A stretch of DNA of 63,242 nt, the filler included, from an uncultured bacterium (lineage in GTDB: Bacteria > CAYJRR01): the NCBI GenBank assembly GCA_964372275.1. It is 2 parts of 2 records of this genome, joined end to end, with 100 filler letters (N's around TTAATTAATTAA, not from the genome) between each part and the next. Parts side by side here need not be neighbours in the genome. Positions count along the whole stretch, not along the records: positions 31,999 to 63,242 come from CAYJRR010000050.1; 1 more part is not named here. One strand, 5' to 3'. A program made the position numbers and the translations under genes. Of this stretch, positions 12,176-63,242 are shown in pieces (position 1 is the stretch's first letter; each line of letters starts with the position of its first letter). The notes beneath the pieces were generated by a model. That model had not been told where the DNA came from and searched no databases. It saw only the letters and a list, made by a program, of their open reading frames with translations.

Positions 12176-12197
12176 GCGGCGCTCGATTCGCGTGACG

Positions 12198-12519: not shown

Positions 12520-13308
12520 ATGAATTCTTCCCCCCGTATCGACGGCGCCACCGGCGAGCCGGTCTGGTCGATCTGGACGGCGCTCGCGTTTCTGTTGCTT
12601 TGGGGGGCGCTCCTGGTCGTGATCCCGACCGCCTCGTTGATGATCGCCGGACTGCTCAAGGCGCCCGACCTCTCCGATCCGGAGGCACTTCGCCGGCACA
12701 TGGAGGCGTTTGCCGAATCGGTCCAGGCATCGCCGCTGCTGCCGGTCGCGATTGCGAGTTGCATGCTGCTCTCGTGGATCGTCGTCTTCGGACTGATGGA
12801 GTCGCTGCTCCGGGTCTACCCGCGGTCGGTGCAACGCCAGGCGCTCGGGATCCGATGGCCGACGCCCTCCTGGAGTCTCGCCGTCGCCGTTCCGGTGGGC
12901 GTCGTCCTCTACGGGGTCGGCGAGCGGATCGCGGTCGGACTTCTCGACGAGCCGACGCCGACCGGCCTCGAGCAGTTGATGCAGACGGCGGTCGGACGCG
13001 CCGCGGTCGTCTTCCTGGCCCTGGTGCTAGCGCCGCCGGCGGAGGAGATCTTCTTTCGGGGGTTCCTCTACCCGCCGATCGCCCGCCTCCTGCCGCCGGT
13101 CCGCGCCGTCGCCGCCAACGCCGCGATCTTCACCATCGCCCACGTCGCCACCTACGGATTCGAGCCGGCCTATCTGCTGCCGGTCGGGCTGCTCGGCCTG
13201 GGGGTCGCGGCCTTGCGCGCCTGGTCGGGGTCGGTCTGGCCCGGGATCGTCGCGCACGGGGTCTTCAACGCCACCTCGATCATCCTGTTTCTTGTAGTAA
13301 AACCGTAG
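12520..13308 (+). CDS. CPBP (type II CAAX/Abi) intramembrane glutamic protease
   Basis: EEIFFRG, FTIAH and HGVFN motifs; multiple transmembrane helices. Confidence 0.9.
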   Translation: MNSSPRIDGATGEPVWSIWTALAFLLLWGALLVVIPTASLMIAGLLKAPDLSDPEALRRHMEAFAESVQASPLLPVAIASCMLLSWIVVFGLMESLLRVYPRSVQRQALGIRWPTPSWSLAVAVPVGVVLYGVGERIAVGLLDEPTPTGLEQLMQTAVGRAAVVFLALVLAPPAEEIFFRGFLYPPIARLLPPVRAVAANAAIFTIAHVATYGFEPAYLLPVGLLGLGVAALRAWSGSVWPGIVAHGVFNATSIILFLVVKP

Positions 13309-13324
13309 AGATCCTGGAGGATCC

Positions 13325-14437: not shown

Positions 14438-14444
14438 CCGGCTG

Positions 14445-15752: not shown

Positions 15753-15992
15753 GGCGTTCTCGGAAGGGGGGGGATGTCCTCGTCGGGGTCGCGGTTGCCG
15801 GCCGCTACGATAGCACCATTACTCGGGCGCGCCCTGCTCGGTCCGGCGCCCGGAGATCGAACCGGTCTGTTCCGCAGGCGCGACCTCGCCGGTGAACCCG
15901 CCTTTGAACGCGCAGCCGGCGAGGCACGCTGGCACGACGATTCGGCCGATTGCGTTCATCCGGTGTCACGGGAAGGCTCGGCGACGCAACCT

Positions 15993-19645: not shown

Positions 19646-21004
19646 TCAGCGGCGGAAGACCTCCCGCCACGACGACGGGTCGTCCGCGTCGAACGGAACG
19701 ACGTCGATCCGGCGAACCGCCGGAAGGTCGGAGAGCGGACCGATCAGTCCGTCGGCGGTGCAGACCAGCACGAGCGCCATCCCCTCCTCCGGAACGGCGC
19801 GGGCGGCGGCGGCGTTGGCGGCGTCGAGCGACGTCGATTCGATCGACGCGACGGTCCGTGCCGTCCAGTCGTCGGGGAGGCCGAGCAGGATCTCGTGCAT
19901 CCGCCGGCCGACGAGCTGTTCGGGGGTCTCGGTCTCGAAGGCGAGCGAATGGAGGAGATGTCCACGGGCGAGTTCGAGCTCGTCCGGGCGGAGCCCCTCG
20001 CATCGGAAGGCGGCGATCAGATCGAGGAGGAGTCGAACGCAGGCGACGGTGTCGTCCCGGCCGGGGAAGGTCCAGACGCCGCCCAGCGCCGCTCCCCGGG
20101 TCGGTTCGAAGCGGCTGTGCGCCCCGTAGGACCAGCCGCGCTTCACCCGCACCTCCTGCATCAGCCGCGCGGTGAAGGTGCCGCCGAAGGCGTGGTTGGC
20201 GACGACGAACGGGAGGAAGTCGGGGTCGGCGGGGTGGAGCGACGGCCACCCGAGGAACAGTTGGGTCTGGCTTCGTTCGGGCTTGTCGACGAGGAGCAGT
20301 TCGACGCCGCGGAGCGGACGCGCGTCGGTGGGCGGCGCCGGATCGATCGTCCCCGCCGGGAGCGAGCCGAGGTACCGCTCGAGCAGGCGCTCGGCGCGGT
20401 CGATCGGGATGCCGCCGGCCACGCCGGCGATCGTCCGGAGCGAGGTCCGCGACTCGCGCCAACAGGCGACGACGTCGTCGCGGGTCAGGAGCGGCAGGTC
20501 GCGTCCCGTGCCGCCGACGAAGCGGCCGTAGGGGTTCGCGCCGTACACCGCGCGGTGGAGAAAGGCCCCTCCCAGCGCCTCGTCCTCCTCGCGGAACAGG
20601 GCCAACTCCGCCACCAGCTCCGACCGCGCCCGCTCCAGCTCGCGCTCGTCGAACGCCGGCTCGAGCAACATCTCGAAGAAGCGGTCGGCGAACGGCTCGA
20701 GGTTCCGCGCCAACACCTGGCCGCCGAGTCGGATCGCCTCACGGTCGGCGGAGGCCTGAAACAGACCGCCGAGCGTCTCCACTTCGTCGGCCAGACGGGC
20801 GCGCGTCCGGGTGCGGGTCCCCCGCTCCAACATCCGGGCGGTGAGCGCCGCGCGCCCCTCCTTGCCGGGCGGATCGGCGCCGGCGCCTCCGCGCAAGTCG
20901 ATCCGTAGCGTGACGAGGGGGAATCCGTCGCGCGCCGCGTGCGCCATCGGGACTTGGGCGATCCGCCGCTGCTCCGCCGTCCGGACGCTGCGAGGGGCGG
21001 CCAC
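19646..21004 (-). CDS. M16B peptidase, non-catalytic subunit
   Basis: M16 fold motifs (RLMQEVRVKRGWSYG) without HxxEH. Confidence 0.85.
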   Translation of the reverse strand: MAAPRSVRTAEQRRIAQVPMAHAARDGFPLVTLRIDLRGGAGADPPGKEGRAALTARMLERGTRTRTRARLADEVETLGGLFQASADREAIRLGGQVLARNLEPFADRFFEMLLEPAFDERELERARSELVAELALFREEDEALGGAFLHRAVYGANPYGRFVGGTGRDLPLLTRDDVVACWRESRTSLRTIAGVAGGIPIDRAERLLERYLGSLPAGTIDPAPPTDARPLRGVELLLVDKPERSQTQLFLGWPSLHPADPDFLPFVVANHAFGGTFTARLMQEVRVKRGWSYGAHSRFEPTRGAALGGVWTFPGRDDTVACVRLLLDLIAAFRCEGLRPDELELARGHLLHSLAFETETPEQLVGRRMHEILLGLPDDWTARTVASIESTSLDAANAAAARAVPEEGMALVLVCTADGLIGPLSDLPAVRRIDVVPFDADDPSSWREVFRR

Positions 21005-21008
21005 GGAC

Positions 21009-22298
21009 CTACTCCCCCTCCTCGGGCCGGGCGACGACGGTGGCTCGCCGGGCGCCGAGCCACCGCCGGGCGACGCGCCGGACGTCCTCCGCGCCCACGG
21101 CGCGGATGCGATCCACCTCCTCCAACAGGCGCCCGGCGTCGCCGGTCGTCACCGCCCAGCTCCCCAGGAGTTCCGCCTTCTCCGCGGCCGTCCGCATCGA
21201 CGCGAACAGGCCCAGCTCTGCCTGGTTGCGTGCCTTCTCCAGCTCGTCGCCGGAGAGGTCGGCATCGCGCAGTCGGGCGAGCTCCTCTTCCAGCACCCGC
21301 TCCGCGTCCGCCGCCGCGTGGCCGGGCCGAATCTCGATCGTCACCTCGAACAGGCCGGGATGCCGGAACGGGGTGAGCGAGCTCTCCACCTCGGCGGCGA
21401 TGGCGAGATCGTCGACCAGCCGGCGCCGGAGACGCGCCGAGTTCCCGCCGAACGCGGTGAGCTCCAGCACCAGCAGCGCCGCCCGGTCGGGCTCCCCCAG
21501 CGCCGGACCCGGGTAGCCGATCACGAGCTTCTCGTTCTCGATCGGGAGCCGCACCTCCCGCCGCCGCCCCGCCGGCGGACCCTCCACCGCAAATCGGCGC
21601 GGTGGGATCGGCTGCGCGGCGATCCCGCCGTAGTGACGGTCGATCGTCTCGCGGACCGCCGCCCCCTCGACGTTTCCGACGACGACGAGCGTCGCGTTGT
21701 TCGGGGCGTACCAGACGCGATAGAAGTCGAGACAGTCCTCGCGTCGGATGGCGCGGATGTCGCGCTCCCAGCCGATCGTCGGCCAGCCGTAGGGGTGACG
21801 CTCGAACGCGGCGGCGTAGAGCATCTCGGAGAGCGTTCCGTCGGGGAGGTCGTCGACGCGATAGCGCCGCTCGTTCAACACCACCTCGCGCTCCGATTCG
21901 ACCTGCGAATCGTCGAGGCGGAGGTTCGCCATCCGATCGGCCTCGAGGAGCGCGACCAGCTCCAGGTTCCCCGCTTCGGCCGGCAGCCCGGAGGTGTAGT
22001 AGGTCCAATCGACCCACGTGGCGGCGTTCGTCGATCCGCCTCTCGCCTCCAGGATGCGGTCGAACTCCCCGTCGGAGAGGGTCTTCGTGGCACGGAACAG
22101 GAGATGCTCGAAGAGATGCGCCATGCCCGTCTTGCCCGGGGCCTCGTCGGCGCTCCCGACGTCGAACCAGGTCTGGTAGGCGAAGACCGGCGCCTGCCGG
22201 TCCTCGTGCAGGAGGAGCGTCAGACCGTTGTCGAAGCGCCACTGCTCGACCGGCGACGTCGAGCCGGCGAACGGGATCGACCGGACGAGCCGGGGCAT
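21009..22298 (-). CDS. M16B peptidase, catalytic subunit
   Basis: GMAHLFEH, NAAT, EREVVLNER; ATG at 22298 coupled to the hslO stop. Confidence 0.92.
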   Translation of the reverse strand: MPRLVRSIPFAGSTSPVEQWRFDNGLTLLLHEDRQAPVFAYQTWFDVGSADEAPGKTGMAHLFEHLLFRATKTLSDGEFDRILEARGGSTNAATWVDWTYYTSGLPAEAGNLELVALLEADRMANLRLDDSQVESEREVVLNERRYRVDDLPDGTLSEMLYAAAFERHPYGWPTIGWERDIRAIRREDCLDFYRVWYAPNNATLVVVGNVEGAAVRETIDRHYGGIAAQPIPPRRFAVEGPPAGRRREVRLPIENEKLVIGYPGPALGEPDRAALLVLELTAFGGNSARLRRRLVDDLAIAAEVESSLTPFRHPGLFEVTIEIRPGHAAADAERVLEEELARLRDADLSGDELEKARNQAELGLFASMRTAAEKAELLGSWAVTTGDAGRLLEEVDRIRAVGAEDVRRVARRWLGARRATVVARPEEGE

Positions 22299-23191
22299 CA
22301 GTTCTTGGGGCCGTGGAAGGTCGCGAGCAGCACGTCGAGCTCGGCGCGATCGATGCGATAGTGCTCGTTGCAGAAGCGGCACACGACCTCGGCCTGGCCG
22401 TCCTCGGCGCGCATCTTCTGGAGCTCCTCGGCGCCGATCATGCGCAGCGTGTCGACCACCTTCTCGCGCGAGCAGGCGCACTGGAAACGGAGGTCGGCGC
22501 GTTGCAGGATCCGGTACGGGGACTCGTGCGCGACGGCGTTCATCAGCGTCTCGATGGCGAGCTCCGGAGTCGAGCCGTCGTGGAGAATGGACGCGCGCCC
22601 CCCCTGCCCGTCGAGCACCGCCTTGTAGGCGTCGAACTTCTCGAGCGACGCTCCCGGTAGCGCCTGGATCAGGATTCCGCAGGCGTTGGCGATGGCGCGG
22701 TCGGGCAGGAATCCGGCATGGAGCGCCATCGCCGAGAAGACCTGTTCCGACTGGGTGAGGTAGGCGCCGACGTCGCTCCCCACTTCGCCGGCAAAGAGCG
22801 GAACGGTGCCGCGCGAGAGGACCTTGAGCGGGGTGCTTCGGATCACCAGGATCGTCCCCTCCCGTCCGAGCGGCGGCGGACCGCCGGGCGCATCGGGGAG
22901 GTCGGCATAGACCTGGGGATTGGAGATGAACCCGCGGAGGTTCCCGTTGGCGTCGGCGTCGGCCATCACCCCCCGCACCGGTCCGTTGGAGGTGATCTGG
23001 AGGGAGAGCTTCTCCTCGCCCGACAGGGGGGTCGACAGGAGCGACGCCGCCGTCATCGTCTCGGAGAGGAGCCGGCTCGCCCCGGACGCGGTGGCGTGCC
23101 GGCGCCGTGCCTCGTTCGAGGTCTCGGTGGTGCAGGCGGCGACGAACCGGAACTCGCCGTCCTCCGTCATCCCCCGCACCAGATAGTCCAT
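22298..23191 (-). CDS. hslO: Hsp33 redox-regulated chaperone
   Basis: MDYLVRG N-terminus; CACS...CRFC zinc motif. Confidence 0.93.
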   Translation of the reverse strand: MDYLVRGMTEDGEFRFVAACTTETSNEARRRHATASGASRLLSETMTAASLLSTPLSGEEKLSLQITSNGPVRGVMADADANGNLRGFISNPQVYADLPDAPGGPPPLGREGTILVIRSTPLKVLSRGTVPLFAGEVGSDVGAYLTQSEQVFSAMALHAGFLPDRAIANACGILIQALPGASLEKFDAYKAVLDGQGGRASILHDGSTPELAIETLMNAVAHESPYRILQRADLRFQCACSREKVVDTLRMIGAEELQKMRAEDGQAEVVCRFCNEHYRIDRAELDVLLATFHGPKN

Positions 23192-32000: not shown

Positions 32001-32822
32001 ACGAGCCTCACCGAGGCCGGCTACGTGGGCGAGGACGTCGAGAACATCATCCTCTCGCTGCTGCAGAACGCCGAATACGACATCGAGAAGGCGCAGAAGG
32101 GGATCGTCTACATCGACGAGATCGACAAGATCTCCCGCAAGGGGGAGAACCCGTCGATCACCCGTGACGTCTCGGGAGAAGGGGTGCAGCAGGCGCTGCT
32201 CAAGATCATCGAAGGGACGATGGCCAACGTCCCGCCCAAGGGGGGGCGCAAGCACCCGCAGCAGGAGTTCCTGCAGGTCGACACCACCAACATCCTCTTC
32301 ATCTGCGGCGGGGCCTTCACCGGGCTCGAGGACATCATCGAGCAGCGCACCGGCGTGAAGACGATGGGGTTCGGCGCCGACGTGCGCGGCAAGGCGGAGA
32401 AGAAGCTGGGCCAGATCCTGGCCGAGGTGCAGCCGCAGGACCTGCTCAAGTTCGGCCTGATTCCGGAGTTCGTGGGGCGGCTGCCGATCATCACCACGCT
32501 GAACGAGCTCGACGAGTCGGCGTTGATCGACATCCTCACCAAGCCGAAGAACGCGCTCACCAAGCAGTACGAGAAGCTGTTCGAGATGGAGAACGTGAAG
32601 CTCAAGTTCCAGGAGGCGGCGCTGGGGGCGGTCGCCAAGGAGGCGCTGCGCCGCAAGAGCGGGGCGCGGGGCCTGCGCGCCATCCTGGAGAACCTGATGC
32701 TCGACGTGATGTTCGAGCTGCCGGGCCAGGACAACGTCCGCGAGTGCATCATCAGCGAGGACGTGGTCGCCAAGGGCGAGCGCCCGATCCTGGTCTACGA
32801 GAACGAAGCCGAGAGCGCCTGA
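32001..32822 (+). CDS. clpX: ATP-dependent Clp protease ATPase ClpX, 5'-truncated
   Basis: [47 protein letters not shown]. Confidence 0.97.
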
Positions 32823-50582: not shown

Positions 50583-51053
50583 TCACGGCGGGACGAGCTT
50601 CACCTCGACCCGCCGATTCGCGGCGCGTCCCGCGGAATTCCGGTTCTCCTCCGCCGGCCGCGCCTCCCCGTAGGCCTTCCGCACCAACCGGCGCGGATCG
50701 ATCCCCGCCCCGACCAACCACGTCGCCACCGCGTCGGCTCGCCGCTTGGCGAGCGCGGCGTTCACCGCCTCGTCGCCGACGTCGTCGGTGTGTCCGTCGA
50801 CCTGGATCGGCTCCGGCCGCGCCTTGGCCGCCTCCACGAACGCCCGCAGATCCGCCTCCGCATCGCCCGGCACCCGATCGGTGCCCGACGCGAAGCGGAC
50901 GATCACCTTCGGCGGCGGCGCCCCCGCGTCCGCCGCCTCCGCCGGCGCCGGCGTCGGGGTCTCCTCCTCGGAGAGGAAGACCGGCTCCCGCCCGAACGCC
51001 ACGCCCACCACGCAGAAAACGACCATCGCCACGATCCACCCGACGCGTCCCAT
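50583..51053 (-). CDS. OmpA-family peptidoglycan-binding protein
   Basis: Signal peptide; VDGHTD, LAKRRADAV, YGE, NRRVE. Confidence 0.88.
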   Translation of the reverse strand: MGRVGWIVAMVVFCVVGVAFGREPVFLSEEETPTPAPAEAADAGAPPPKVIVRFASGTDRVPGDAEADLRAFVEAAKARPEPIQVDGHTDDVGDEAVNAALAKRRADAVATWLVGAGIDPRRLVRKAYGEARPAEENRNSAGRAANRRVEVKLVPP

Positions 51054-51152: not shown

Positions 51153-51228
51153 GGGCGGCTAGCTCAGCGGTTAGAGCACCTGCCTTACACGCAGGGGGTC
51201 CCAGGTTCAAATCCTGGGCTGCCCACCA
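51153..51228 (+). tRNA. tRNA-Val(TAC)
   Basis: Cloverleaf; anticodon arm CCTGC-CTTACAC-GCAGG; GGTTCAAATCC T-arm; CCA end. Confidence 0.97.
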
Positions 51229-51257
51229 TCCGCTCGAAGCGCGCGGCGCCGCAGCAC

Positions 51258-51334
51258 GGGGTGGTAGTTAAGTTGGTTATAACGCCGGCCTGTCACGCCG
51301 GAGGGCGCGGGTTCGAGTCCCGTCCACCCCGCCA
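51258..51334 (+). tRNA. tRNA-Asp(GTC)
   Basis: Cloverleaf; CCGGC-CTGTCAC-GCCGG; GGTTCGAGTCC; CCA end. Confidence 0.97.
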
Positions 51335-51745
51335 CGAAGCAAACGCCTCAAGTCCTCGCGACTTGGGGCGTTTTGCTTTTCCAGCCACCTCGTCGGAGGC
51401 CACTGCACCAAGGACTGCACCAAGCGCTGGCCGGCCTCCCTCGGCGGTGTGCTCCGGGCCCGTCCACCTCTCCCGGCCCGCCACCTTCCGCAGGGGCACG
51501 ACCTCGCAGGAGAGCCGCTCGAGCTTGAGCTTCGCGACCTCCTCGCAGAGCGTCTGCCAGGGAAGCGTCGTGTAGACGTCCATGATGTCCGTGCTCTTCC
51601 CGTGGGTGATCCACTTGAGCACGTCGATCCGGCCCCTGTCCGCGCGTGCGAGCGTGATGAAGGTCCGCCGGAGTTCGTGCATCCGCCGCCGGCGGAACCC
51701 GAACCACCCGAGGTCCTTCTCGAACTTCCTCATTCTGTGGTTCAC
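51293..51745 (-). pseudogene. 5'-truncated tyrosine recombinase/integrase remnant reading into tRNA-Asp
   Basis: HELRRTF (HxLR), ITHG and DVY catalytic motifs; in-frame TGA at 51752-51754 upstream; C-terminus WRGGRDSNPRPPA is antisense tRNA. Confidence 0.8.
51336..51382 (+). terminator. Hairpin/terminator downstream of tRNA-Asp
   Basis: AAGCAAACGCCTCAAGTC-CTCGC-GACTTGGGGCGTTTTGCTTTT. Confidence 0.7.
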
Positions 51746-53629: not shown

Positions 53630-54310
53630 TCAGAACTCGATCACCAGGCTCACGCGCTCGGGGAGCGCCTCGTGCGGAGGCGCGTTCAGCCGATAGGCCG
53701 GGTTGGAGAGGACGCGCGTGACGCACTCGCGTTGGTCGCGGGTGAGGTCGGCGCTCTGGGCGACCGGCTCCAGCTCGTGGTCGCCGACCCGGCCGCTGGC
53801 GGCGTCGATCGAAACGGTCCAGCGGAGGCTGCCGGTCGACGTGGCGCCGACGAAGCACCGCGAGAGGCGCGGACTGCGCGCGGAGACCTGGAGACGGAAG
53901 TCGTCGGTCCAGTCCGGCGCGCCGCGGCCCGCGAGGTCGTAGCCGGGGCGGCGCTGCCGTTCGAGCGTGCCGTCGAGCGGTCCGGGTCTCGGGCGCCGGG
54001 TCGGCGGGGGGGACGGCTTCGCGGCGATCGTCGGCACGCGCGGGGAGGCGATGGCGGGGGGCCCCTTGGCCTCGTCGCATCGGAGGAGGAGCAACAACAG
54101 GAGCAGGGCGGCGAGCGCCGCGAGGCGCCGTTCGCGGCGGTGGTCGCGTGGCGGGCGGCGTCCGAGCACCCGCCGCACCCGCTCCGCGGCCTGCGCGCGA
54201 AGACGCGGAAGCAGCCGCCGGGCCTCCTCCCTCCGGCGCCGCGCCTCCTGGCGCAGGTCGTCCGGTGACCGCGCCGGCGCGGCGTCGCGCGGATCAGTCG
54301 TGCCCGGCAT
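53630..54310 (-). CDS. Single-pass membrane protein with a Pro-rich linker and a TonB-C/AgmX-like C-terminal domain
   Basis: Basic N-terminus, LAALAALLLLLLLL helix, PSPPP linker, LSRCF...VSID..SGRV...ECV..VL Cys-pair domain. Confidence 0.55.
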   Translation of the reverse strand: MPGTTDPRDAAPARSPDDLRQEARRRREEARRLLPRLRAQAAERVRRVLGRRPPRDHRRERRLAALAALLLLLLLLRCDEAKGPPAIASPRVPTIAAKPSPPPTRRPRPGPLDGTLERQRRPGYDLAGRGAPDWTDDFRLQVSARSPRLSRCFVGATSTGSLRWTVSIDAASGRVGDHELEPVAQSADLTRDQRECVTRVLSNPAYRLNAPPHEALPERVSLVIEF

Positions 54311-56207
54311 CGGAGATCCTCCATCCGAAGACGGGCGCGCCGTCCGGCGTGCGCCACTCGACCGGGTCGAGGGCGAGCGGGGCGAAGGGCGACGGCGCCT
54401 CGGGCTCGGGGGCCACGAACGGCCACGGAAGCGGGTCGGCGGGGGCGAGGCGCACGGCGCCGGCGAACGTCTCGCGTGCCGGCGACAGCGACCGGGCTTT
54501 GGCCCCCACCGACTCGTCGAGGTGACGCAACCCCTCGAGGATCGCCTGCGCGCGGTCGGCGAGAAGCTCGGCGTTGCGCCGCTGCGCCCGCTTCCGGGGA
54601 TCCCCGTCGAGCAGCGGATCGAGCACGCGCACGACCGACCGGAGCGTCGCGGCGTGCGCGGCGCGGACCGACGCCTCCTCGGCCTCGATCTTCTCGATCA
54701 GCTCCCGGAGGAACCGCAGCGTGAGAGAAGGCTCGCCGGCGATCCCGTCGCGAAGCTCCGTCGCGAGGCTGCCCACCTTGCCGCGCGCCAGCCACCGCAG
54801 ACGCGCGGCCTTCAGGTCGAACGAACCTCCGCGGCGCGCCCCCGCGACGACACGCTCGAACGACCGTTCGTCGGCGCGCAGCGCGGCGCGCCAGGCCAGC
54901 TCCTCGACCACCGCGTTGTACTCCTGGCGTGGCACCAGCGCCTGCAGCGTGGCGATCACCCCGTCGTCGGTCTCGTACCGCGACAGCACGTAGGAGAGCC
55001 ACCGCCGTCCGAGCCCCAGGATCGCCGACGACTCCTGCGACTCCTCGGCCTTTCCCATGGCGAAGGCGAAGGAGCGGATCGCCTCCTGCGTCCGGCCGGC
55101 CTCGAGGAAGGCGATGCCGCGGTGGAGCGCGATCGCGGCGCGATCCCGGAATCCGGACGAGGGATCGAGATCGAGCAGGCGCTGCCCGCGCTCTCCGCCG
55201 AACACGGCGAGCCGGCGCTCCGGCGTGTCGGCGCCCAAGAAACCGATCCAGAGCGCGAGCTCCTCCCCGGACCGCCGCGCGGCGAGCTCGTCGATCATCG
55301 CGAGGACGAGCCGATCCAGTCGTCCTTCGTGGGTCGAGTGTCCCCTTGCCTGGGTGAACAGGAACAGCCTCCGCGAACGATGGAGGCTCATCCATTCCTC
55401 GACCGTCCACGACAGGCATCGCCGGAGGAACGACGCCGACGGGCTGTCCGAGGGGAAGAGCTCGGCCGCCGCGCGCACCTCCTTCGCCCCCGCCGCCGAG
55501 ACCCCCAACGCCTTCGCCTGCCGCTCCGCCGCGAGCGCGTCGCGGCGGATCTGCCGCGCCTGCAGTTCGGCGAGCGCGAGGTCGAGGTCGAAGATCCGCG
55601 CTTCGACGGCGGCGACGCTCTCCACCTTCGATCGATCCAGCGTCGAGAGCGACTCCTCGAGAAGGTCGCGGAGCGTCGCCCCGAGCACCCGCCGATCGCG
55701 GAGATGCTCGGTGGAGCCCGATCCGGGCAGCGCTCCGTAGATCGCGTAGCAGGGGGTGCGCGCGTAGGCGACGGTGCGCAGCTCCGACGGCGCGAGCACG
55801 TCCTTCAGCGAGACGAAGCGCTGCTGCCGGCCGACGTCGAACGCCCCCCACGGAGGCGGCCGCTTCGGCGCCGGACCCCGGCGCGCGGCGTCGACGAGCA
55901 CGTTGTGCAGCGCCAGCGGCCACAGCCCGGCGCCGCCGCGCTCGTCACGCGCGAAGCCGTCCGGACACAGGCCCATCTCTCCCAGCGCCGTCCAGACCGC
56001 CGAGCGGAAGTCGCCGTCCCGGGAGGCGCGCTCCCCCCGATCGAGGAGGCCGTTCCGCAGCAACCACAGCGTGAGCGTGTCCTTCGGTCGATCGTCCTTG
56101 AGCGCGAGCCGCGCGTTGTAGAAGACGAGATCCTGCGACGACGGCGACGGCCCGGCGGCGAGGAGGAAGGCCGACAGGACCGGCGGCGCGAGGGCGAGGC
56201 GGCGCAT
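54294..56207 (-). CDS. Large secreted alpha-helical/TPR-like hypothetical protein
   Basis: ATG at 56207 (TGATG coupling); signal peptide; HRGIAFLEAGRTQEAIRSF TPR-like segment. Confidence 0.7.
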   Translation of the reverse strand: MRRLALAPPVLSAFLLAAGPSPSSQDLVFYNARLALKDDRPKDTLTLWLLRNGLLDRGERASRDGDFRSAVWTALGEMGLCPDGFARDERGGAGLWPLALHNVLVDAARRGPAPKRPPPWGAFDVGRQQRFVSLKDVLAPSELRTVAYARTPCYAIYGALPGSGSTEHLRDRRVLGATLRDLLEESLSTLDRSKVESVAAVEARIFDLDLALAELQARQIRRDALAAERQAKALGVSAAGAKEVRAAAELFPSDSPSASFLRRCLSWTVEEWMSLHRSRRLFLFTQARGHSTHEGRLDRLVLAMIDELAARRSGEELALWIGFLGADTPERRLAVFGGERGQRLLDLDPSSGFRDRAAIALHRGIAFLEAGRTQEAIRSFAFAMGKAEESQESSAILGLGRRWLSYVLSRYETDDGVIATLQALVPRQEYNAVVEELAWRAALRADERSFERVVAGARRGGSFDLKAARLRWLARGKVGSLATELRDGIAGEPSLTLRFLRELIEKIEAEEASVRAAHAATLRSVVRVLDPLLDGDPRKRAQRRNAELLADRAQAILEGLRHLDESVGAKARSLSPARETFAGAVRLAPADPLPWPFVAPEPEAPSPFAPLALDPVEWRTPDGAPVFGWRISDAGHD

Positions 56208-57052
56208 CAGAAGAACCATCCGGTGCCGAGGGAGACCTCCCACCACCAGCCGAGCTCGGTGCCGAGCGTCGGCAGCGCGACCATGGCGCGCGGCGACAGG
56301 AATCCGCTGGGATGGAAGTAGACGTCCATCGACAGCCCGCCGAGCAACGCGTATCGCGCGGTGTCGATCTGCATCCCGCCGGGTCGGCGCCCCTCCAGGT
56401 TGTCGAGCTCGCGGGAGGTCAGCTGCGGCAGGAGGATCGAGCGGGCGATCCGCTCCCAACCGACGCCGGAGAACGCCCCCGGGTAGTAGAGGTAGCGCAG
56501 ACCGGCATTCGCGGTCAGCACCAGCTCGGTCGCGGGGAACGCCCCCGGTCGGGCCGTCGCCACCCCTTCGGCGATCGGGTAGCCGACATTGAAATCGAGC
56601 TCCCAGCGGCTGGGGCGGCCGACCTGTCGGTAGGGGGTGAGCTCGATCTTGTCGGCGCTCGCGCTGCCGTGGGTCCGGACGCGCGTCATCGCGAACTCGG
56701 TCATCAGGCTGTTCGACGGGCGGCGCAGGACGACGCCGCGGCGCTCGGTGGTGAAGTTGTTGAGCTCGAGCAGCACGCTCCCGGTGATCCCCACCCCGAC
56801 GCTCTTGCGCCGCCAGTCGACCCGCACCGCGCGCGACGCCGTGCCGATCGACCGCTCGACCAGCTCGTCGACGGGAAGGCGGAACTGCTCGATCCAATCG
56901 GTGGCCGGCGGCGGGTCGGCGAACGCTTCGGCGGCGGAGACCGCAGGGGCGGGCGGGAGAGGGGGATCGGCGGCGGGGGACGGAGACGGGGACGGGGTCG
57001 GCGTCGGGTCCGCCAGGAGCGCGAGCGCGAGGAGGGCCGGCTCAAGGATCAC
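56207..57052 (-). CDS. Putative outer-membrane beta-barrel protein
   Basis: Signal peptide, Pro-rich N-terminus, alternating amphipathic strands, C-terminal WEVSLGTGWFF beta-signal. Confidence 0.65.
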   Translation of the reverse strand: MILEPALLALALLADPTPTPSPSPSPAADPPLPPAPAVSAAEAFADPPPATDWIEQFRLPVDELVERSIGTASRAVRVDWRRKSVGVGITGSVLLELNNFTTERRGVVLRRPSNSLMTEFAMTRVRTHGSASADKIELTPYRQVGRPSRWELDFNVGYPIAEGVATARPGAFPATELVLTANAGLRYLYYPGAFSGVGWERIARSILLPQLTSRELDNLEGRRPGGMQIDTARYALLGGLSMDVYFHPSGFLSPRAMVALPTLGTELGWWWEVSLGTGWFF

Positions 57053-59033
57053 GAGGGAAGCCTCCGTCCCCCGGCTCCGGGAAGTCCGGCTCGTAGCACT
57101 GGTTCCGGTAGTCGTCGCGGAACTCGGCGCGCACGTTGTAGACGCCGGCCGAGTCGAAGGTCGGGTGGTCGCAGAACCGGGAGCAGCGCAGGAGCGTCCG
57201 GTCGAGCGGGAACTCGCCGGTTCGCCACAGATCGGTCCCCCAGTAGGAGCGGTCGGAGCGGGAGATCCCGAACGGCACCGTCGCCGAGAAGGCGGTCGCG
57301 CTTCCCGCGACCACGATCTCGTAGTCGAGCCGCAGCAGGAACGGGAACTCCCAGTAGAGACCCAGCTCGTACGACGACTCCGGATCCTGGTCGTGCACGT
57401 CCGGGAGCATCGACAGCGGCTGCGGATCGGGAAAGTCGTCGCTCCGGAAGACGACGATCCCGGCGACCGGGTCGGCGGCGCAGAACGAGAACGATTCGTC
57501 GGGGAGCGCCGACACGCTCTCGTCGTTGAAGAAGGTGGCGAGTCCGAACTCCCCGAGCCGGACGTTCTCCGACAAGGGCGTCCGCTCCGGGGCCAGGAAC
57601 TTGAGACCGGTCACCCGGCCCGCCTGGTCGGCAGAGTACTTGTCGATGAACGTCAGGTACTGCTTGCGCGTCGGCAGCACCGGCACGTTGGCGATGGTGA
57701 ACGGCCCCAGCGACAGCTCCGGGATGTCGGGGAGCAGCGGGCAGTTGCGCGCGGAGGTGGTGAGGATGTCGTCGAGGTCGTCGCCGCCGCCGAGCGCCGG
57801 GCACCACAGCGCGAGCGAGCTCAGGGCGTCGATCTCGATCGAGTGCGCGTAGCTGTCGAAGAGGAAGGCGCCGCTGACCCGCGGCGAGCTCTGGCCGGCT
57901 TCGAACGACAGGACCTGCTCCAGCGCCTCCTCCACCACGAATGCCACCCCGCCGCTCGGATCGTCGTGGTGCAGGGCGAGGGTGAGGACCATGTCGTTCC
58001 CCTCGGGGCGAACGTCGTCGACCGCCGCCTGCAGGTCGGCGGCGAGCTGGTCGGCGAACCCCTGGGTCTGCCAGTCGTCGATGCAGAGCACCTCCGAGGC
58101 GTCGAGGCGGAGGCGCTGCCGCTGCATCGCGCGGTGCTCCTCGGAGATGGTGCGCTCGCAGGGCCGGAGCAGGAAACCGACGGCGGTGTTCGAGCGGATC
58201 GGACTGCGCAGCTCGGGGAAGGCGGCGGCGACCTCCGGGTTCTTGCGCGCGACCGCCGGCGCCCGGAAGGTGCCGACCGCGTCGGTCACCGTCGACTCGG
58301 CGCAGACCAGCGGCTCGGGCCAGGCCTCGAACGGCAGCGCGTCCGGCTCGAAGATCGCGCGCTCGGAGGTCTCCAGCGCCTCCCACGGGAGCGCCGTCAT
58401 CGTCTCCGGGCAGGCCGGGTCGAAGGCGTAGGCGTACGGATTGCCGGCATCCTGCACGTCGGCCTCGCCGTAGCGCGCATCCGAGATGCGAAACGTCCGC
58501 CGCAGACCGAGGTCCTCGACCTCCTCGTTGCGGAGATTCGGGAAGTGATGGCGCGCGCGCCATTGGACGCGCTCGTTCGTCTCGTCGAAAACGCCGTAGA
58601 CGATCAGGCTCCGCTTCCGCGCCGGCGCCCCGGGGCCGACGAGGTAGAGCTCCGTCGTGGCGTTCAGCACCAGCTCCCCGTCCCGGTGGTAGCGGAGGCG
58701 CAGATCGACCGAACCGGGCCGGTCGGGGAGGTGGAGGCTCATCGATCCGCAACGTGCCGTCCGCCCGCAGTCGACCGGCAGGTGGGTGTGAACCGGCTCG
58801 AGCGTGGACAGGTCGGTCCAGGGGAGCTCGAACGGATCGGTGCGGTAGGTCAGCTCGACCACGCTCTCCGGCCCCAGCCCCTGGCTGGCCTCGATGCGAT
58901 AGAAGAGGAAGAGCGTCTCCTCCTCCTCGAACCACACGGCGTCGGACAGGGCGAAGCCGGCCCCGATGTCGGTGAGCGGCAGCTTCTCGCAGCCGGCCGC
59001 CAGCAGGACCGCGACCAGGAGGAGCGCCCGCAC
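57042..59033 (-). CDS. Large Cys-containing hypothetical lipoprotein
   Basis: GTG at 59033 overlapping the upstream TAG; MRALLLVAVLLAAG-C lipobox. Confidence 0.75.
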   Translation of the reverse strand: MRALLLVAVLLAAGCEKLPLTDIGAGFALSDAVWFEEEETLFLFYRIEASQGLGPESVVELTYRTDPFELPWTDLSTLEPVHTHLPVDCGRTARCGSMSLHLPDRPGSVDLRLRYHRDGELVLNATTELYLVGPGAPARKRSLIVYGVFDETNERVQWRARHHFPNLRNEEVEDLGLRRTFRISDARYGEADVQDAGNPYAYAFDPACPETMTALPWEALETSERAIFEPDALPFEAWPEPLVCAESTVTDAVGTFRAPAVARKNPEVAAAFPELRSPIRSNTAVGFLLRPCERTISEEHRAMQRQRLRLDASEVLCIDDWQTQGFADQLAADLQAAVDDVRPEGNDMVLTLALHHDDPSGGVAFVVEEALEQVLSFEAGQSSPRVSGAFLFDSYAHSIEIDALSSLALWCPALGGGDDLDDILTTSARNCPLLPDIPELSLGPFTIANVPVLPTRKQYLTFIDKYSADQAGRVTGLKFLAPERTPLSENVRLGEFGLATFFNDESVSALPDESFSFCAADPVAGIVVFRSDDFPDPQPLSMLPDVHDQDPESSYELGLYWEFPFLLRLDYEIVVAGSATAFSATVPFGISRSDRSYWGTDLWRTGEFPLDRTLLRCSRFCDHPTFDSAGVYNVRAEFRDDYRNQCYEPDFPEPGDGGFPRDP

Positions 59034-60955
59034 TAGGCGACCAGCTCCGCGAACGAGACGCGGCCGAGCGCCATCACCCGCTTCATCGCGTCGACCAGCT
59101 CCGCGCGCCCGCGCCGCGCCATGCGCAGCTGCTCGGCCCGCGTGGGAAAGGCCATGTTCGCCCGCGCCGCGCGTTGCAACGCCGGGGTCAGGATCCCGAG
59201 AAGCGTCTCCTGCCAGCGCGGGTCGTGCACCGACAGCCACCCGGCGAGCGCCTTGACGTCGACCTCGAGCATCAGGTCTGCCTGCGCCTCGCGCGGCAGC
59301 TTCAGCAGCATGTCGGGGTAGAGGATGTTGTAGTACCAGAAGGGGTAGGACCCGTTCCAGCGCTTGAGCGCCCCGTCCAGCAGCGCCTGCCGCTCGGCGT
59401 CGGTGAGGTGCGTGAACAGCACCGAGAGCGCCCCCGGCGCGTCGAACTCGCGACCCAGGTCGACGATGCCGCTCGCCTCCTGCTTCGGCGGCGCCGGCAG
59501 CGGGCGCCCCATCCGCGCCGCATCCAGCGCGGCGAACAGGTGGGCCCGCTCGTCGTTGGAGACGCGGTTCGACAGCAGCAGCTGCGTGCCGAGCAGCGAT
59601 CGGAACGTGGGCTGCAGGCTGCGGGTCACCTCGTGCTGGATGTCGACCGGCACCATCGCGAACAGGAGCGCCGCGTGGCGAGGCGAGAGCGCCTCGATCA
59701 GGTTCGCCACCCCGGCGCTGCCGAAGTCCTCGCGGATGGAACGGTAGAGGTCGGCGTCGTGCTGCGACAGGAGCGACGACGAGATCGCGTGGTGGTTGAG
59801 AGTGCGGAAGAACTCGGCGTCCGAGGGGAGCGGCTGGTTGTCGAGGTTCCGCAGGTACTCGGCGAACTCCACTTTGCGCGCCGCGAGGTCGCCGTCGGAG
59901 GAGAAGGTCAACGCCAGGCGGTCCTTGAAGACGTGGATCGCTTTCGCGAGCAGCGCGAACTCCCCCGCCTTGAGCCACTGGTGCAGCAGCGCCACCACCA
60001 CGCTCTCGTCGCGCTCCATCTCCGCCTTCGAGATCCGTTCGTTCCACAGCGCCCGAGCCTCGTCGACGAACGCCTGGTCCTGCTCGTCGGGGGTCTTCTG
60101 TTCGGCCGCGGCCCTCTCCGCCGCGCTTTGGATCGGCGCGGCCTCGGTCGACGCCGGGAGGCCGCCATCGGCTGCGGGCCCGAGCGCCCCGGCGGCGAGC
60201 TGCGCCGCCATCATCTTCTCTTCGATCGACTCCTTCCCGAGGCGGCGAAGTGCCCAGATGACGGAGAGCGTCGCCAGGGTCACCAGGAGCAGCGCGATCA
60301 TCCAGGAGAAGTGCGGCAGCAGCGCGACCCACAGCTCCCGCACGGCCACCGCGCCGTCCCAGGTCGTCGGCGGCGTCGGCGCGGGGGCCGGCGTCGCCGC
60401 CGGACGCGGCGTCGGCTCGGGGGTCGGCTGCGAAACCCCAAGGCTCGGCGAGATCGGGTCGAGGAGCTGGCGACCGACCGTGACCTTCAGCCATCCCTTC
60501 GAGAGGCGCTGCTCCAGCCGGCGCACCAGCGCCTGCACGTCGCGCGCGGGGACCGATTTCTCGTGCGCGAAGTCGCACTGCGCCTGGGTGAGGTACTCCT
60601 GCGCCGGGACGGCCCCCGGCCCCTCCTGCTGGGGGATCCCCGGCAGCGAGGAGCTGCGCGGCAGGTCGACCACCGCGTGGTCCCGGTAGACGCAGCCCTT
60701 GGAGACGCACCGCTCCGGCGCGCAGTCCTGGAGCAGGCCCGAGTCGAACCGGCTCTCCAGCTCGCGCAGCTCCACCAGCACCGGCGGCGGGATGTGCCGC
60801 TGCGGAATGGCGGCGGCCCCCGTCTGGGCGGCCGCGGAGTGCGGCAGCACGGCCGCGAGAAGGGGGAGCAGCGCCGCGCCGAGGCGGCCCGAGATCGGCC
60901 GACCACTCGCGCCGGGCGACGGAAGAGGTCTTGAAATCGGCTCGCGGGCACTCAT
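59033..60955 (-). CDS. FliF-FliG fusion-like rotor protein (signal peptide, RBM-like periplasmic domain, one TM helix, FliG-M/FliG-C-like cytoplasmic part)
   Basis: ATG at 60955 coupled to the motB stop; VALLHQWL (FliF C-terminus-like); ANLIEALSPRHAALL...EV...RVS (FliG-M-like); DMLLKLPREAQADLMLEVDVKALA...ELVDAMKRVMALGRV (FliG-C-like). Confidence 0.7.
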   Translation of the reverse strand: MSAREPISRPLPSPGASGRPISGRLGAALLPLLAAVLPHSAAAQTGAAAIPQRHIPPPVLVELRELESRFDSGLLQDCAPERCVSKGCVYRDHAVVDLPRSSSLPGIPQQEGPGAVPAQEYLTQAQCDFAHEKSVPARDVQALVRRLEQRLSKGWLKVTVGRQLLDPISPSLGVSQPTPEPTPRPAATPAPAPTPPTTWDGAVAVRELWVALLPHFSWMIALLLVTLATLSVIWALRRLGKESIEEKMMAAQLAAGALGPAADGGLPASTEAAPIQSAAERAAAEQKTPDEQDQAFVDEARALWNERISKAEMERDESVVVALLHQWLKAGEFALLAKAIHVFKDRLALTFSSDGDLAARKVEFAEYLRNLDNQPLPSDAEFFRTLNHHAISSSLLSQHDADLYRSIREDFGSAGVANLIEALSPRHAALLFAMVPVDIQHEVTRSLQPTFRSLLGTQLLLSNRVSNDERAHLFAALDAARMGRPLPAPPKQEASGIVDLGREFDAPGALSVLFTHLTDAERQALLDGALKRWNGSYPFWYYNILYPDMLLKLPREAQADLMLEVDVKALAGWLSVHDPRWQETLLGILTPALQRAARANMAFPTRAEQLRMARRGRAELVDAMKRVMALGRVSFAELVA

Positions 60956-61581
60956 CAGTGGATCCTCACGATCACGCGGCGGTGGCGGGCGAGCCGGTGC
61001 TCCTCGCCGAGCCCGGCCAGCTCCGTCTCCGGCAGCGGCTTGGTGTCGGCGTACCCCTCGACGCGCACGCGGTCCCGCGGAATCCCGACGTCCTCCAGCC
61101 GCTGGCGCACCACGATCGCCCGCGCGCTGGAGAGCTCCCAGTTGGTCGCGAAGGGACTCCCCTTGGAGACCGGCATCACGTCGGTGTGACCCTCGACGGC
61201 GAAGGAGTAGCGGTTCGAATAGGGGGTCAGCAGTTGCAGCATCGAGGCGACCGTCGCCTCCAGGTCCGGTCGGATGTTCGCCCGCCCGGAGTCGAAGACC
61301 AGCCCCGAGTTCAGCGACAGCTCCAGACCGTCGGGCGTCTCGTCGGTGCGGACCAGCTCCTGAAGCTGGCGCTTCGCGATCTCGGCGTCGATCTCCTTGC
61401 GGATCGACGCGAGGCTCTGGGGGCTCTCCGCCCCCGACAGGCTCTTCACGATCTGCTGCATCCGACCCTTGCTCAGGTTCGCCGCGGTCAACAGCACGAC
61501 GAAGAAGAGGAGCAGGTTGGTGATGAGGTCGGCGTAGCTCAGGAGCCAGCTCTCCTCGTGTCCTTTGGCTCTCCGTTCCAT
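60955..61581 (-). CDS. motB: MotB-type stator B subunit
   Basis: WLLSYADLIT TM helix with the conserved Asp, plug-like helix, OmpA-type domain EGHTD...NWELSSARA...GYADTKP...RRV. Confidence 0.92.
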   Translation of the reverse strand: MERRAKGHEESWLLSYADLITNLLLFFVVLLTAANLSKGRMQQIVKSLSGAESPQSLASIRKEIDAEIAKRQLQELVRTDETPDGLELSLNSGLVFDSGRANIRPDLEATVASMLQLLTPYSNRYSFAVEGHTDVMPVSKGSPFATNWELSSARAIVVRQRLEDVGIPRDRVRVEGYADTKPLPETELAGLGEEHRLARHRRVIVRIH

Positions 61582-62319
61582 CTATCCGACCCGCGTCTCC
61601 GGTCGGAACTGGCTGGCGCTGCGCGCGACCAGCTCGTTCGCCGTCTTCTCGCACCGTTCCAGGAATCCGAGCCGCTCGTCGAGCAGCCCGTTCAGGAAGT
61701 GCCCGACCGGCCCGGCGACGCCTGCGCCGAACGAGACGCCGTAGAGCGTCGCCAGCAGCGCCAGCGACATCGCCGCGCCGATGTTCAGGTCGTCGGTGTT
61801 CATCTTGCTGAACAGCTGCACCATGCCGGTGATCGTCCCCACCATCCCGAACGCCGGACCCAGCTTGGAGAGCATCTCCCAGTTGTTGATCGCCGGCTGC
61901 CAGTAGGCGATCTCGGCGTGCCGGAGCTCCAGGAAGACCTTCGCGCTCGCCACCTCCGGCGCGCGGTTCACCGCCAGGTCGAGGATCTGCTTGATCGCGG
62001 CGAAGCGGCTTTTCTCCGCCAGCGCCAGCGCCTGGCTGCGCTTCCCTTCGTGCCAGAGCTGGCTCAGCTGATCCCGCTCCGCCTCCATCGTCCGGCTCTC
62101 GGTCCCGAAGGTGCGAAGGCCGGGGATGATCTCCTTGAGGCAGAGCACCGTGCGCCAGGCGGTGGTGTGGCTGGAGCTGGCGAGCACCGCGGCGGTCGAG
62201 CCGACCAGCACCATCACCAGGGCGTGCAGGTCGAACGCCGAGACGGTGTGGGTGCTGCCCCGGTCGGTGAAACCGAGCCAGACGACGAAGGCGAGCAAGA
62301 CGAATCCGATGAGTTGCAA
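61582..62319 (-). CDS. motA: MotA-type stator A subunit
   Basis: GAGGAGG RBS plus TTG at 62319; four TM helices; GPAFGMVGTITGMV and IGAAMSLALLATLYG. Confidence 0.9.
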   Translation of the reverse strand: MQLIGFVLLAFVVWLGFTDRGSTHTVSAFDLHALVMVLVGSTAAVLASSSHTTAWRTVLCLKEIIPGLRTFGTESRTMEAERDQLSQLWHEGKRSQALALAEKSRFAAIKQILDLAVNRAPEVASAKVFLELRHAEIAYWQPAINNWEMLSKLGPAFGMVGTITGMVQLFSKMNTDDLNIGAAMSLALLATLYGVSFGAGVAGPVGHFLNGLLDERLGFLERCEKTANELVARSASQFRPETRVG

Positions 62320-62336
62320 GCGATCCTCCTCGTGCT

Positions 62337-62969
62337 CTACGGCTGGGTCTTCTGCAGCTCCTCGAGCTTCTTCCGCACCGCCGGGTCGCTCTCGATCGAC
62401 TCCACCTCTTCGTAGATCTCGATCGCCTTCTCCCGCTCCCCCATCATCAGCAGCAGCGACGCCTTGGCCCGCAGGAACTCCGGATGCGACGGGTAGCGTT
62501 GCAGCACCGTCTCGCACCACTCCAGCCCCAGCGGGTAGTTCCCCCCCTTGATCGACTCCTGCATCAGCGCGCGCGCCCGGGTGATGCTCACCTCCGGCGC
62601 ATCCTGGTCGATGCGTAAGCCCCGGGCGCGGTAGGCCTCGACCAGCGCGCCGTCGGCGCGGGTCGGCGGCGGCGGCACCACCCGCGTCGCCGGGATCGTC
62701 TTCACGTTCTTGCTGCCGGCGCCGTGCTCGATGACGATCCGCTGTCCGCTGGCCAGCACCGGCAGGTCGACCTCGGTGATGAGGCTTCCGTCGTTCCAGC
62801 GGACCTTCATCACCGTCGTCGACCCGAAACCGAACGGCCGCGCCAGCGTCCCCTCCTCCTTGAGCGCGGGGTTCTTCTGCGCCGGCGGCTCGACCAGGTA
62901 GTAGGTGTAGTTGCGCGCCGCGCAGGAGACGAGCGGAACGGAGAGGAGCAGGAGGATCGTTTTCTTCAT
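62337..62969 (-). CDS. Lipoprotein with a C-terminal TPR
   Basis: MKKTILLLLSVPLVS-C lipobox; YPSHPEFLRAKASLLLMMGEREKAIEIYEE TPR. Confidence 0.78.
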   Translation of the reverse strand: MKKTILLLLSVPLVSCAARNYTYYLVEPPAQKNPALKEEGTLARPFGFGSTTVMKVRWNDGSLITEVDLPVLASGQRIVIEHGAGSKNVKTIPATRVVPPPPTRADGALVEAYRARGLRIDQDAPEVSITRARALMQESIKGGNYPLGLEWCETVLQRYPSHPEFLRAKASLLLMMGEREKAIEIYEEVESIESDPAVRKKLEELQKTQP

Positions 62970-63242
62970 GGGAGGAAGGGGAGGAACGAGCTGTTGAGGA
63001 GCGAAACGCCGACGCCGTAGCGGCCGTTGGTCGAGGCCGAGAGCGTGAGGCCGTAGTTCGACTGGGCGATCGGAATCCGGGCGATGAAGACGGCGGTGAG
63101 CAGCGGGTCGAGGATCTCGGTGTTGTCTTCGGTGATGCTGCGCACCAGCGCGGTCGGGAAGCTCATCAGCACCTTCCCCCCCACCAGCACGTTCCGTGCG
63201 CTCGGCACCGCGCGGTAGTAGCCGCCGCCGATCCACATCACC
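62966..63242 (-). CDS. 3' end of a hypothetical protein (possible beta-barrel); 5' part outside the window
   Basis: Open frame with amphipathic strands (YGLTLSAST, YGVGVSLL); ATGA overlap with the next gene. Confidence 0.6.
   Translation of the reverse strand, partial: VMWIGGGYYRAVPSARNVLVGGKVLMSFPTALVRSITEDNTEILDPLLTAVFIARIPIAQSNYGLTLSASTNGRYGVGVSLLNSSFLPFLP

Follow-up and report, generated by a model that had tools for sequence, protein, structure and literature searches.

The subject of this study is a stretch of 63,242 nucleotides (nt) of DNA from an uncultured bacterium (GenBank assembly GCA_964372275.1), referred to as a whole as the window. It ends in a group of nine genes (gA to gI in the order of their transcription), and comparison of gene order identifies them as the downstream part of a cassette of 12 genes that is conserved in Myxococcota. 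Two of them encode the stator proteins MotA (gC) and MotB (gD), and the gene next in line, gE, encodes a membrane protein with FliF-like and FliG-like parts, so that a flagellar rotor-stator core would be encountered here in a non-flagellar setting. The identity of the parts of the cassette is near certain, and on balance we lean towards reading the whole as a flagellum-independent, envelope-spanning machine organised around a rotor-stator pair of flagellar descent.

Raw lists of open reading frames (ORFs) were crowded with shadow frames because the G+C content of the window is about 70%, and genes were called from third-position GC, frame plots, an ORF map and start mapping. Nine minus-strand genes between positions 53630 and 63242 were supported by third-position GC, the ORF map and start mapping. 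Neighbouring genes abut or share 1–17 nt, the sole exception being a gap of 17 nt between gB and gC that holds the ribosome-binding site AGGAGGA, and the packing of the nine genes is operon-like. An earlier note on this DNA, made from the sequence alone, had described at least nine co-oriented, overlapping or abutting genes and had seen no flagellar or che gene in the window. The former description was borne out by third-position GC and the ORF map. As to the latter, neither the cassette proteins nor the 30 further ORFs of the window contained a flagellar or che gene product in Pfam scans, and a tblastn search of the window with 12 flagellar proteins returned nothing better than E 0.07 (E, expect value). 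The stretch, or part of it, is present in four metagenome DNA runs from two studies (six runs listed), and no RNA run is among the sequencing runs listed as holding it.

The stator genes and the putative rotor protein

The product of gC matched the Pfam family MotA_ExbB (E 2.1e-12), and among the NCBIfam models the flagellar PomA and MotA models ranked first, below their equivalog cut-offs, with PomA as the top model (6e-14). When compared with solved structures at E<=0.001, all eight distinct matched sequences were flagellar MotA or PomA (best 6.6e-11). A maximum-likelihood tree of A subunits was computed from 26 rows, comprising all MotA_ExbB-family proteins of one Archangium and one Nannocystaceae genome, E. 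coli MotA, ExbB and TolQ, and the orthologues of gC. With a support of 98/97 it separated gC, the MotA of a paralogous cassette described below and three flagellar MotAs from all proteins of the ExbB/TolQ type; the tree has long branches, and the branching order within its MotA side is not settled. Positions equivalent to E. coli P173 and P222 were kept in 12 of 12 gC sequences, and that of R90 was occupied by K or R in 11 of the 12.

The product of gD contains both MotB_plug (9.6e-15) and OmpA (6.2e-15) in Pfam; MotD and MotB models ranked first in NCBIfam, below the equivalog cut-offs here as well (MotD 4.5e-33). Its alignment with E. coli MotB runs over the full length (E 8e-16), and the ion-pathway aspartate, which we take to be D32 in the numbering of E. 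coli, is retained in the motif SYAD. Taken together, gC and gD are predicted to form an ion-driven stator of flagellar type with channel prolines, the MotB aspartate, a plug and an OmpA-like wall anchor. In a recent survey, the combination of plug and OmpA-type domain in the B subunit is treated as the mark that sets flagellar stators apart from 'generic' ones (PMC12505986).

Read from its N-terminus, gE is composed of a signal-peptide-like segment, a Cys-rich periplasmic alpha-beta-beta-alpha-beta domain (~53–168), a membrane helix (~201–238), a FliF-tail-like helix (~316–332) and FliG-like N, M and C domains (331–640). Its only Pfam match is MgtE_N (E 1.7e-6), a domain of the FliG fold. The family is small, with 157 representative clusters at E<=0.001 among 1.84 billion proteins, and its closer members are annotated as 'hypothetical'. 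A family profile built from an alignment of 48 sequences matched the middle and C domains of Thermotoga maritima FliG with E 1.3e-9 and residues 28–320 of Salmonella FliG with E 6.6e-8, MgtE ranking lower. Structure prediction pointed the same way: with the AlphaFold2 model of gE (mean predicted local distance difference test, pLDDT, 84.9) as query, FliG was the top match in Foldseek (best E 3.4e-4) and remained so after re-alignment with VIA (Z up to 11.1), which laid Salmonella FliG 5–323 on gE 331–635. The FliG_C chain 1qc7_B was superposed by VIA over 88 of its 89 residues with a root-mean-square deviation of 2.1 (Z 10.3), and a search independent of Foldseek among 48,161 chains again put FliG at the top (Z 10–11). 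The cytoplasmic region of gE is thus modelled as a full FliG-like N-M-C fold of three helical domains, the C-terminal one with six helices, in agreement with the earlier note, in which a FliF/FliG-like protein had been proposed.

The FliF-like half of that proposal concerns the parts ahead of the FliG-like region. In the model, residues 57–164 show the alpha-beta-beta-alpha-beta topology of a ring-building motif (RBM), and four cysteines of the periplasmic domain are invariant. Compared as a unit (53–168), this domain matched RBM3 of FliF with Z 8.3–9.2, above PrgK, CdsD, SpoIIIAG and PrgH (Z 6.1–6.8); the Pfam family YscJ_FliF, which represents RBM1-2, gave no hit at E<=1 in gE or any of the 48 family members. 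Strands one and two of the RBM-like domain are separated by a highly conserved loop (residues 97–118, window ~60602–60667, SLPG...GPG...QEYLT), in which P105 and G106 are invariant and which is modelled with low confidence. The ring-forming beta insertions of FliF RBM3 and SpoIIIAG presumably lie at the position of this loop.

For the tail, hhalign paired gE 297–332 with the last 35 residues of a single FliF (E 1.6e-3, probability 16%) and, when an alignment of eight FliF sequences was used instead, gE 213–332 with the second membrane helix, the linker and the C-terminal tail (E 3.6e-4, probability 37%). The tail of FliF is the segment which we take to bind FliG. Its counterpart in gE, the helix DESVVVALLHQWLKAGE, immediately precedes the FliG-N-like domain; within it L328 is kept in 45 of the 48 family sequences, and position 327 is occupied by W in 29 and by Leu in 13 more. 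For this FliF-like part the statistics are weak and the position within the protein is persuasive.

Conservation of the cassette and its relation to flagella

A scan of species-representative genomes for relatives of gE yielded 16 loci, contributed by Archangium (8), Cystobacter, one metagenome-assembled genome (MAG) each of Archangiaceae, Myxococcaceae, Nannocystaceae, Polyangiaceae, Bradymonadia and Myxococcota, and two unclassified MAGs. Gene order was the same in 16 of 16 loci up to the contig ends, and ten of them held all nine genes; protein identities across the loci extended from 36–61% for gE up to 60–80% for gB. The arrangement is not one of chance, because the same order recurs in all 16 related loci, and as to co-occurrence of the gene set elsewhere, which the earlier note had raised, this order was found in four or more myxobacterial lineages. 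Upstream of gA, where a standard flagellar cluster had been considered conceivable, 12 syntenic loci share three further genes, named u5, u5b and u6, of which u5 encodes a lipoprotein and u6 a secreted protein with the C-terminus TFCF. Distant loci share nothing further on the far side of u5 or of gI; therefore the cassette is taken to consist of 12 genes in the order u5, u5b, u6, gA, gB, MotA, MotB, gE, gF, gG, gH, gI. Flagellar genes flanked it in none of the loci examined; ahead of u5 the Archangium gephyra locus encodes an ABC transporter and proteins without a recognised family.

In one Nannocystaceae MAG (G003) the cassette is split: the u5–gB half does not adjoin motA, and motA to gI and the u6 orthologue are found on different contigs (L011, L054; C39, C9), so that both halves are kept though unlinked. 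This split suggests two sub-operons, u5–gB and motA–gI. In a wider sample of 401 genomes of the phylum, the gE profile matched at E<=1e-10 in 62 and at the level of an orthologue in 56.

Independence from flagella rests on the genomes of these relatives and not on the window's own genome. In two Archangium genomes the cassette is present together with neither flagellin nor a true FliG; their FHIPEP and YscJ matches come from a pair of type-III-like loci at other sites, and the only two MotB_plug proteins of A. gephyra are the MotB of the cassette and that of the second, paralogous cassette. Flagellated MAGs of Polyangiaceae and Nannocystaceae (G002 and G003) possess complete flagellar clusters apart from the cassette, and these encode a FlgC, FliF, FliG, FliH, FliI, FliK, FlgD, FlgE and MotB of their own. 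In the Nannocystaceae MAG the cluster flgC-fliFGHI-fliK-flgDE occupies coordinates 6918–15969 of L018. Among the 56 carriers of a gE orthologue, 29 had a flagellin match and 27 had none, a count of missing hits that is inflated by the incompleteness of MAGs. As the cassette is intact in genomes without flagellin, a flagellum is not required by it. Across the phylum, flagellin genes were recorded in 133 of the 401 sampled genomes, and flagella appear to be much commoner in Myxococcota than the model species suggest.

The second cassette of A. gephyra (locus L017, chromosome ~2.856 Mb, locus coordinates 4591–16985) encodes MotA, a MotB that has both the plug and the OmpA domain, and a FliG-like membrane protein of 576 aa, which passes the Pfam cut-off for FliG_C (30.7 bits, cut-off 23.3). 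To the gE family this protein was aligned by hhalign over 495 columns (E 3.8e-13), spanning the periplasmic, membrane and FliG-like parts. In a phmmer comparison of the two cassettes only MotA and MotB matched and no likeness was found among the accessory genes, the flanks of L017 being made up of unrelated secreted proteins and lipoproteins. One of these flanking proteins (627 aa) combines Ig-like, CarboxypepD_reg and squalene-hopene-cyclase-like repeats. Members of the paralogue family occur in Archangium, Cystobacter fuscus, Aggregicoccus and MAGs under the pipeline name 'FliG C-terminal domain-containing protein'. The trio of MotA, MotB and FliG-like protein is thus shared in the company of unrelated accessory genes, and is therefore seen as a unit that is combined with different sets of envelope proteins.

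Accessory envelope proteins and the remainder of the window

The coordinates of the nine genes and of further features of the window are compiled in Table 1. In full length gA encodes a secreted protein of ~320 aa, an orthologue (L016:6985–7944) carrying a signal peptide, and its identity across 12 loci amounts to 44–94%. Neither gA nor gF, gG, gH and gI had a Pfam match, and no meaningful match to solved structures was obtained with profiles of gF, gG, gH and gI. The lipobox of gB reads LVSC and its repeats belong to TPR_19 (E 1.5e-5, 25.6 bits, cut-off 25).

With 50% mean column identity over 42 sequences, gF is the best conserved of the accessory proteins. It has the lipobox LAAGC and 12 invariant or nearly invariant cysteines, and among the matches listed all homologues are named 'hypothetical' or 'lipoprotein'. 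Its AlphaFold2 model (pLDDT 84.6) begins with tandem immunoglobulin (Ig)-like beta-sandwich domains followed by alpha/beta regions; fold matches were confined to generic Ig-like domains (best VIA Z 7.2, ~residues 21–265), and the rest of the model was barely covered.

Identities of 36–59% were found for gG, whose orthologues carry signal peptides and which may represent a putative outer-membrane beta-barrel. A signal peptide and no known family characterise gH. Atlas look-ups returned sub-threshold leads only for gF and gH, those for gH being weak leads to tetratricopeptide repeat (TPR) clusters (scores <=0.81), and gH is possibly a helical repeat protein. In its layout, gI starts with a basic N-terminus on the cytoplasmic side, which is followed by a single membrane helix, a linker rich in Pro and, at the C-terminus, a conserved domain of ~95 aa. 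It resembles TonB and TolA in this architecture only: gI had no Pfam or NCBIfam match at E<=1 and no PDB match, and the hhalign probability of 4% for E. coli TonB and 0.07% for TolA is not significant, single-sequence targets making this a weak test.

Of the gene order given in the earlier note, the TPR lipoprotein gB (TPR_19, lipobox), motA, motB and the large lipoprotein gF (lipobox) stood. The descriptions of gA and gG as beta-barrels were not sustained by any family match (gG ends in GWFF), 'TPR-like' for gH goes back to the weak Atlas leads, and 'TonB-C-like' for gI found no backing in Pfam or hhalign. The accessory proteins had also been thought of as possible divergent flagellar proteins; no flagellar family was matched by them in Pfam, NCBIfam or profile comparison with the PDB, searches which very divergent homology could escape.

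Table 1: Position and properties of the cassette genes gA–gI and of further features of the window.
Feature	Position	Strand	Description
gA	62966–63242	-	C-terminal 91 aa only, gene cut by the window end
gB	62337–62969	-	210-aa lipoprotein, C-terminal TPR repeats
gC (MotA)	61582–62319	-	245 aa, TTG start after AGGAGGA
gD (MotB)	60955–61581	-	208 aa; plug, membrane-helix Asp, OmpA-like peptidoglycan-binding domain
gE	59033–60955	-	640 aa, putative rotor protein
gF	57042–59033	-	663-aa lipoprotein
gG	56207–57052	-	281 aa, C-terminus GWFF
gH	54294–56219	-	641-aa secreted protein; alternative start at Met 56207
gI	53630–54310	-	226-aa bitopic membrane protein
ORF	51293–51745	-	150 aa
tRNA-Val (TAC), tRNA-Asp (GTC)	51153–51334	+	two tRNA genes
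OmpA-family protein	50583–51053	-	156 aa, stand-alone
ORF	32025–32822	+	265 aa; C-terminal half of ClpB-type AAA_2 and ClpB D2-small domain only
M16 peptidase gene	21009–22481	-	insulinase-like family
M16 peptidase gene	19646–21004	-	insulinase-like family
TonB-dependent-receptor-like gene	7143–9956		CarboxypepD_reg/Plug
M16 peptidase gene	2704–5571	-	insulinase-like family; 955 aa

According to Pfam, the 30 further ORFs of the window are of housekeeping type, among others M16 peptidases, Lon, citrate synthase, a TonB-dependent receptor and GlnD. The gene for the OmpA-family protein is situated 2.6 kb downstream of the cassette and outside the conserved synteny. Because it overlaps tRNA-Asp, the 150-aa ORF is probably not a gene, and the 265-aa ORF may be a truncated gene or have a miscalled start. 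Two of the three M16 genes are adjacent, and the TonB-dependent-receptor-like gene is found near the M16 genes.

Mechanism, competing explanations and known systems

What we tentatively propose is a self-contained, non-flagellar rotary organelle, in which a ring of gE turned by MotAB would drive an outer-membrane-linked apparatus of proteins without known relatives. gE would oligomerise in the inner membrane into a ring that is the combined equivalent of MS-ring and FliG ring, and peptidoglycan-anchored MotA5B2, powered by the proton (or sodium) gradient, would push on its FliG-like domains. Through the periplasmic domain of gE the motion of the ring would then be passed on to the lipoproteins and outer-membrane proteins (gB, gF, gH, gI, gG, gA, u5, u5b and u6). 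Since export gate, rod, hook and filament are lacking, the output would be some process of the envelope or surface, be it surface movement, the handling of polymers or proteins, or outer-membrane dynamics. The distinct trans-envelope machine with its own FliG-like ring that the earlier note had envisaged is supported computationally, whereas ring formation by gE, the push or turn by MotA5B2, the transfer of motion to the partners and the function are what we infer; rotation of the gE ring in particular we hold to be possible but somewhat short of probable.

Several observations weigh against this reading. The most serious concerns the contact between stator and rotor. According to PMC7564593, R90 and E98 of MotA are paired with D289 and R281 of FliG. 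The five charged torque-helix residues by which FliG meets MotA in flagella, K264, R281, D288, D289 and R297 in Salmonella (numbered from the profile alignment), align with S, A, A, N and Q of gE, and no position of the equivalent helix is conserved in charge among the 48 sequences of the family. On the stator side, the column of E. coli E98 is gapped in the gC alignment; at the position just before it ten of 11 orthologues carry an acidic residue (E or D), whereas the gC of the window carries A. Because the torque-helix charges of FliG are not kept, a contact of MotA with gE must use a diverged interface, and it is here that the rotor reading is weakest.

The rotor assignment itself has gaps in addition. 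gE alone misses Pfam FliG_C, which was touched by only four of the 48 family members, all at E >=0.0019, and the match to the FliF tail is statistically weak at the probabilities quoted above. The C-terminal domains of cation-efflux transporters match the periplasmic domain as well as FliF does (Z 9.5), and ring building is for that reason not shown by the fold alone. A complex prediction with four copies of gE residues 50–170 scored 0.32 (mark 0.42, controls 0.00) and weighs neither way. Moreover, Pfam and NCBIfam gave no homologue of FliM or FliN in the cassette, and flagellin was commoner in carriers of gE orthologues (29/56) than in non-carriers (104/345; odds ratio 2.5, p 0.002, kinship ignored), so that in some lineages a tie between cassette and flagella may exist.

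The principal rival is a force transducer similar to the Ton and Tol systems and without a rotating ring. MotAB would here energise single gE and/or gI proteins, which would pull or gate outer-membrane proteins in the service of uptake, secretion or maintenance of the envelope, and the FliG-like domain would be nothing but a docking site for MotA. The missing torque-helix charges would be readily understood, the layout of gI is that of TonB and TolA (membrane helix, Pro-rich linker and small conserved C-terminal domain), lipoproteins and outer-membrane-like proteins abound in the cassette, and it is general knowledge, already stated in the earlier note, that the other known non-flagellar 5:2 motors run without a FliG ring. 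However, the stator, with plug and OmpA domain, is of the flagellar and not the ExbBD/TolQR type, gE keeps the N-M-C architecture of FliG and an RBM-like domain, which are ring-building parts in flagella, and the similarity of gI to TonB and TolA is not significant. We therefore consider such a transducer unlikely, although it is the rival that survives best.

A sensory or regulatory device appears improbable. In it a stator-like channel with a FliG-like scaffold would report envelope load, proton-motive force or surface contact, for which it may be adduced that flagellar stators are known to be mechanosensors, that FliG and MgtE_N folds are also present in the regulatory domain of the MgtE channel, and that the output structure of the cassette cannot be named. 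However, what is conserved together are twelve structural envelope genes, whose accessory proteins are strongly conserved (gF being the example given above), and in Pfam and NCBIfam the cassette contained no cytoplasmic ATPase, kinase, cyclase, transcription factor or regulator.

Still less credit is given to the idea of an accessory or alternative motor module, such as a periplasmic scaffold or a second rotor-stator set, serving a true flagellum in flagellated Myxococcota. The enrichment of carriers for flagellin speaks for it; yet the cassette is intact in Archangium without flagellin or true FliG, almost half of the carriers (27/56) have no flagellin match, flagellated carriers have their own FliF, FliG and MotAB, and in none of the loci examined does the cassette adjoin a flagellar cluster. 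Hardly any credit is due to an anti-phage system of the Zorya type or to a remnant of flagellar genes in decay, because weak matches of MotB to ZorB (best 1.4e-17) are far surpassed by those to flagellar MotD/MotB models (4.5e-33), PADLOC detected no ZorA, ZorC or ZorD in the ten proteins scanned and no defence system, and all reading frames are intact in an order kept across distant lineages at 36–80% protein identity.

Should the rotor-stator reading hold, the cassette would be the first flagellar torque generator known to work outside a flagellum, and given the trio of the second cassette, two or more machines of this kind would be present in Myxococcota. Torque generation of the flagellar type would then reside in a portable unit that exists separately from type III export, which bears on the question of which part of the flagellum arose first, and the joining of motor and export apparatus would become testable by comparing the two systems. 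The coupling of stator and rotor could also be studied in a simpler system that is open to culture (Archangium, Cystobacter, Hyalangium), and an unknown envelope function in myxobacteria would be indicated.

No description of a non-flagellar cassette of MotAB with a FliG-like protein was found in the full-text literature searched; subscription journals and supplementary files lay outside this search and could contain one. The earlier note had recognised no characterised system in it. All uses of a FliG rotor with a MotAB stator known to us are in flagella. With the motor core of the flagellum the cassette shares a MotA that groups with flagellar MotA, a MotB with plug, Asp and OmpA domain, and in gE the FliG-like N, M and C domains; the FliF-RBM3-like periplasmic domain and the FliF-tail-like helix may be counted in addition. 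It differs in that type III export gate, rod, hook, filament, FliM/FliN and che genes are absent from cassette and window, in that FliF-like and FliG-like parts are united in one polypeptide with a single RBM-like domain and no conserved torque-helix charges, in its presence in genomes without flagellin, and in its partners, nine envelope proteins of no known family. Classical FliG is soluble, resides in the cytoplasm and binds FliF and FliM, whereas gE is modelled as a membrane protein with a periplasmic domain.

The Agl-Glt gliding and Agl-Nfs spore-coat machineries of Myxococcus xanthus (PMC3858216, PMC13104615) combine a 5:2-type ion motor with TPR, TonB-like bitopic, lipo- and outer-membrane proteins in an envelope-spanning complex. 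They stem from the same phylum as the cassette. Their motor, AglRQS, is TolQR-like and without a FliG-like partner, in contrast to MotAB and the FliG-like protein of the cassette; it is this motor type that sets the systems apart. A membrane-embedded, ion-driven motor coupled to envelope partners is likewise common to ExbBD-TonB, TolQR-TolA, GldLM of the type IX secretion system (T9SS) and ZorAB. However, the ExbB/TolQ clade of the tree excludes the MotA of the cassette, and ZorA, ZorC and ZorD were not matched. We know of no FliG homologue that is used by any of these systems or by Agl.

The nearest precedent is the FliF-FliG fusion of Chlamydiaceae (Bergeron, bioRxiv 10.1101/023564). [quoted passage not shown] The chlamydial protein is reported to keep only the middle region of FliG, and the type III secretion system has been proposed as its partner (10.1101/023564), whereas gE has the full N-M-C set in its model and directly follows motAB in a dedicated cassette of 12 genes.

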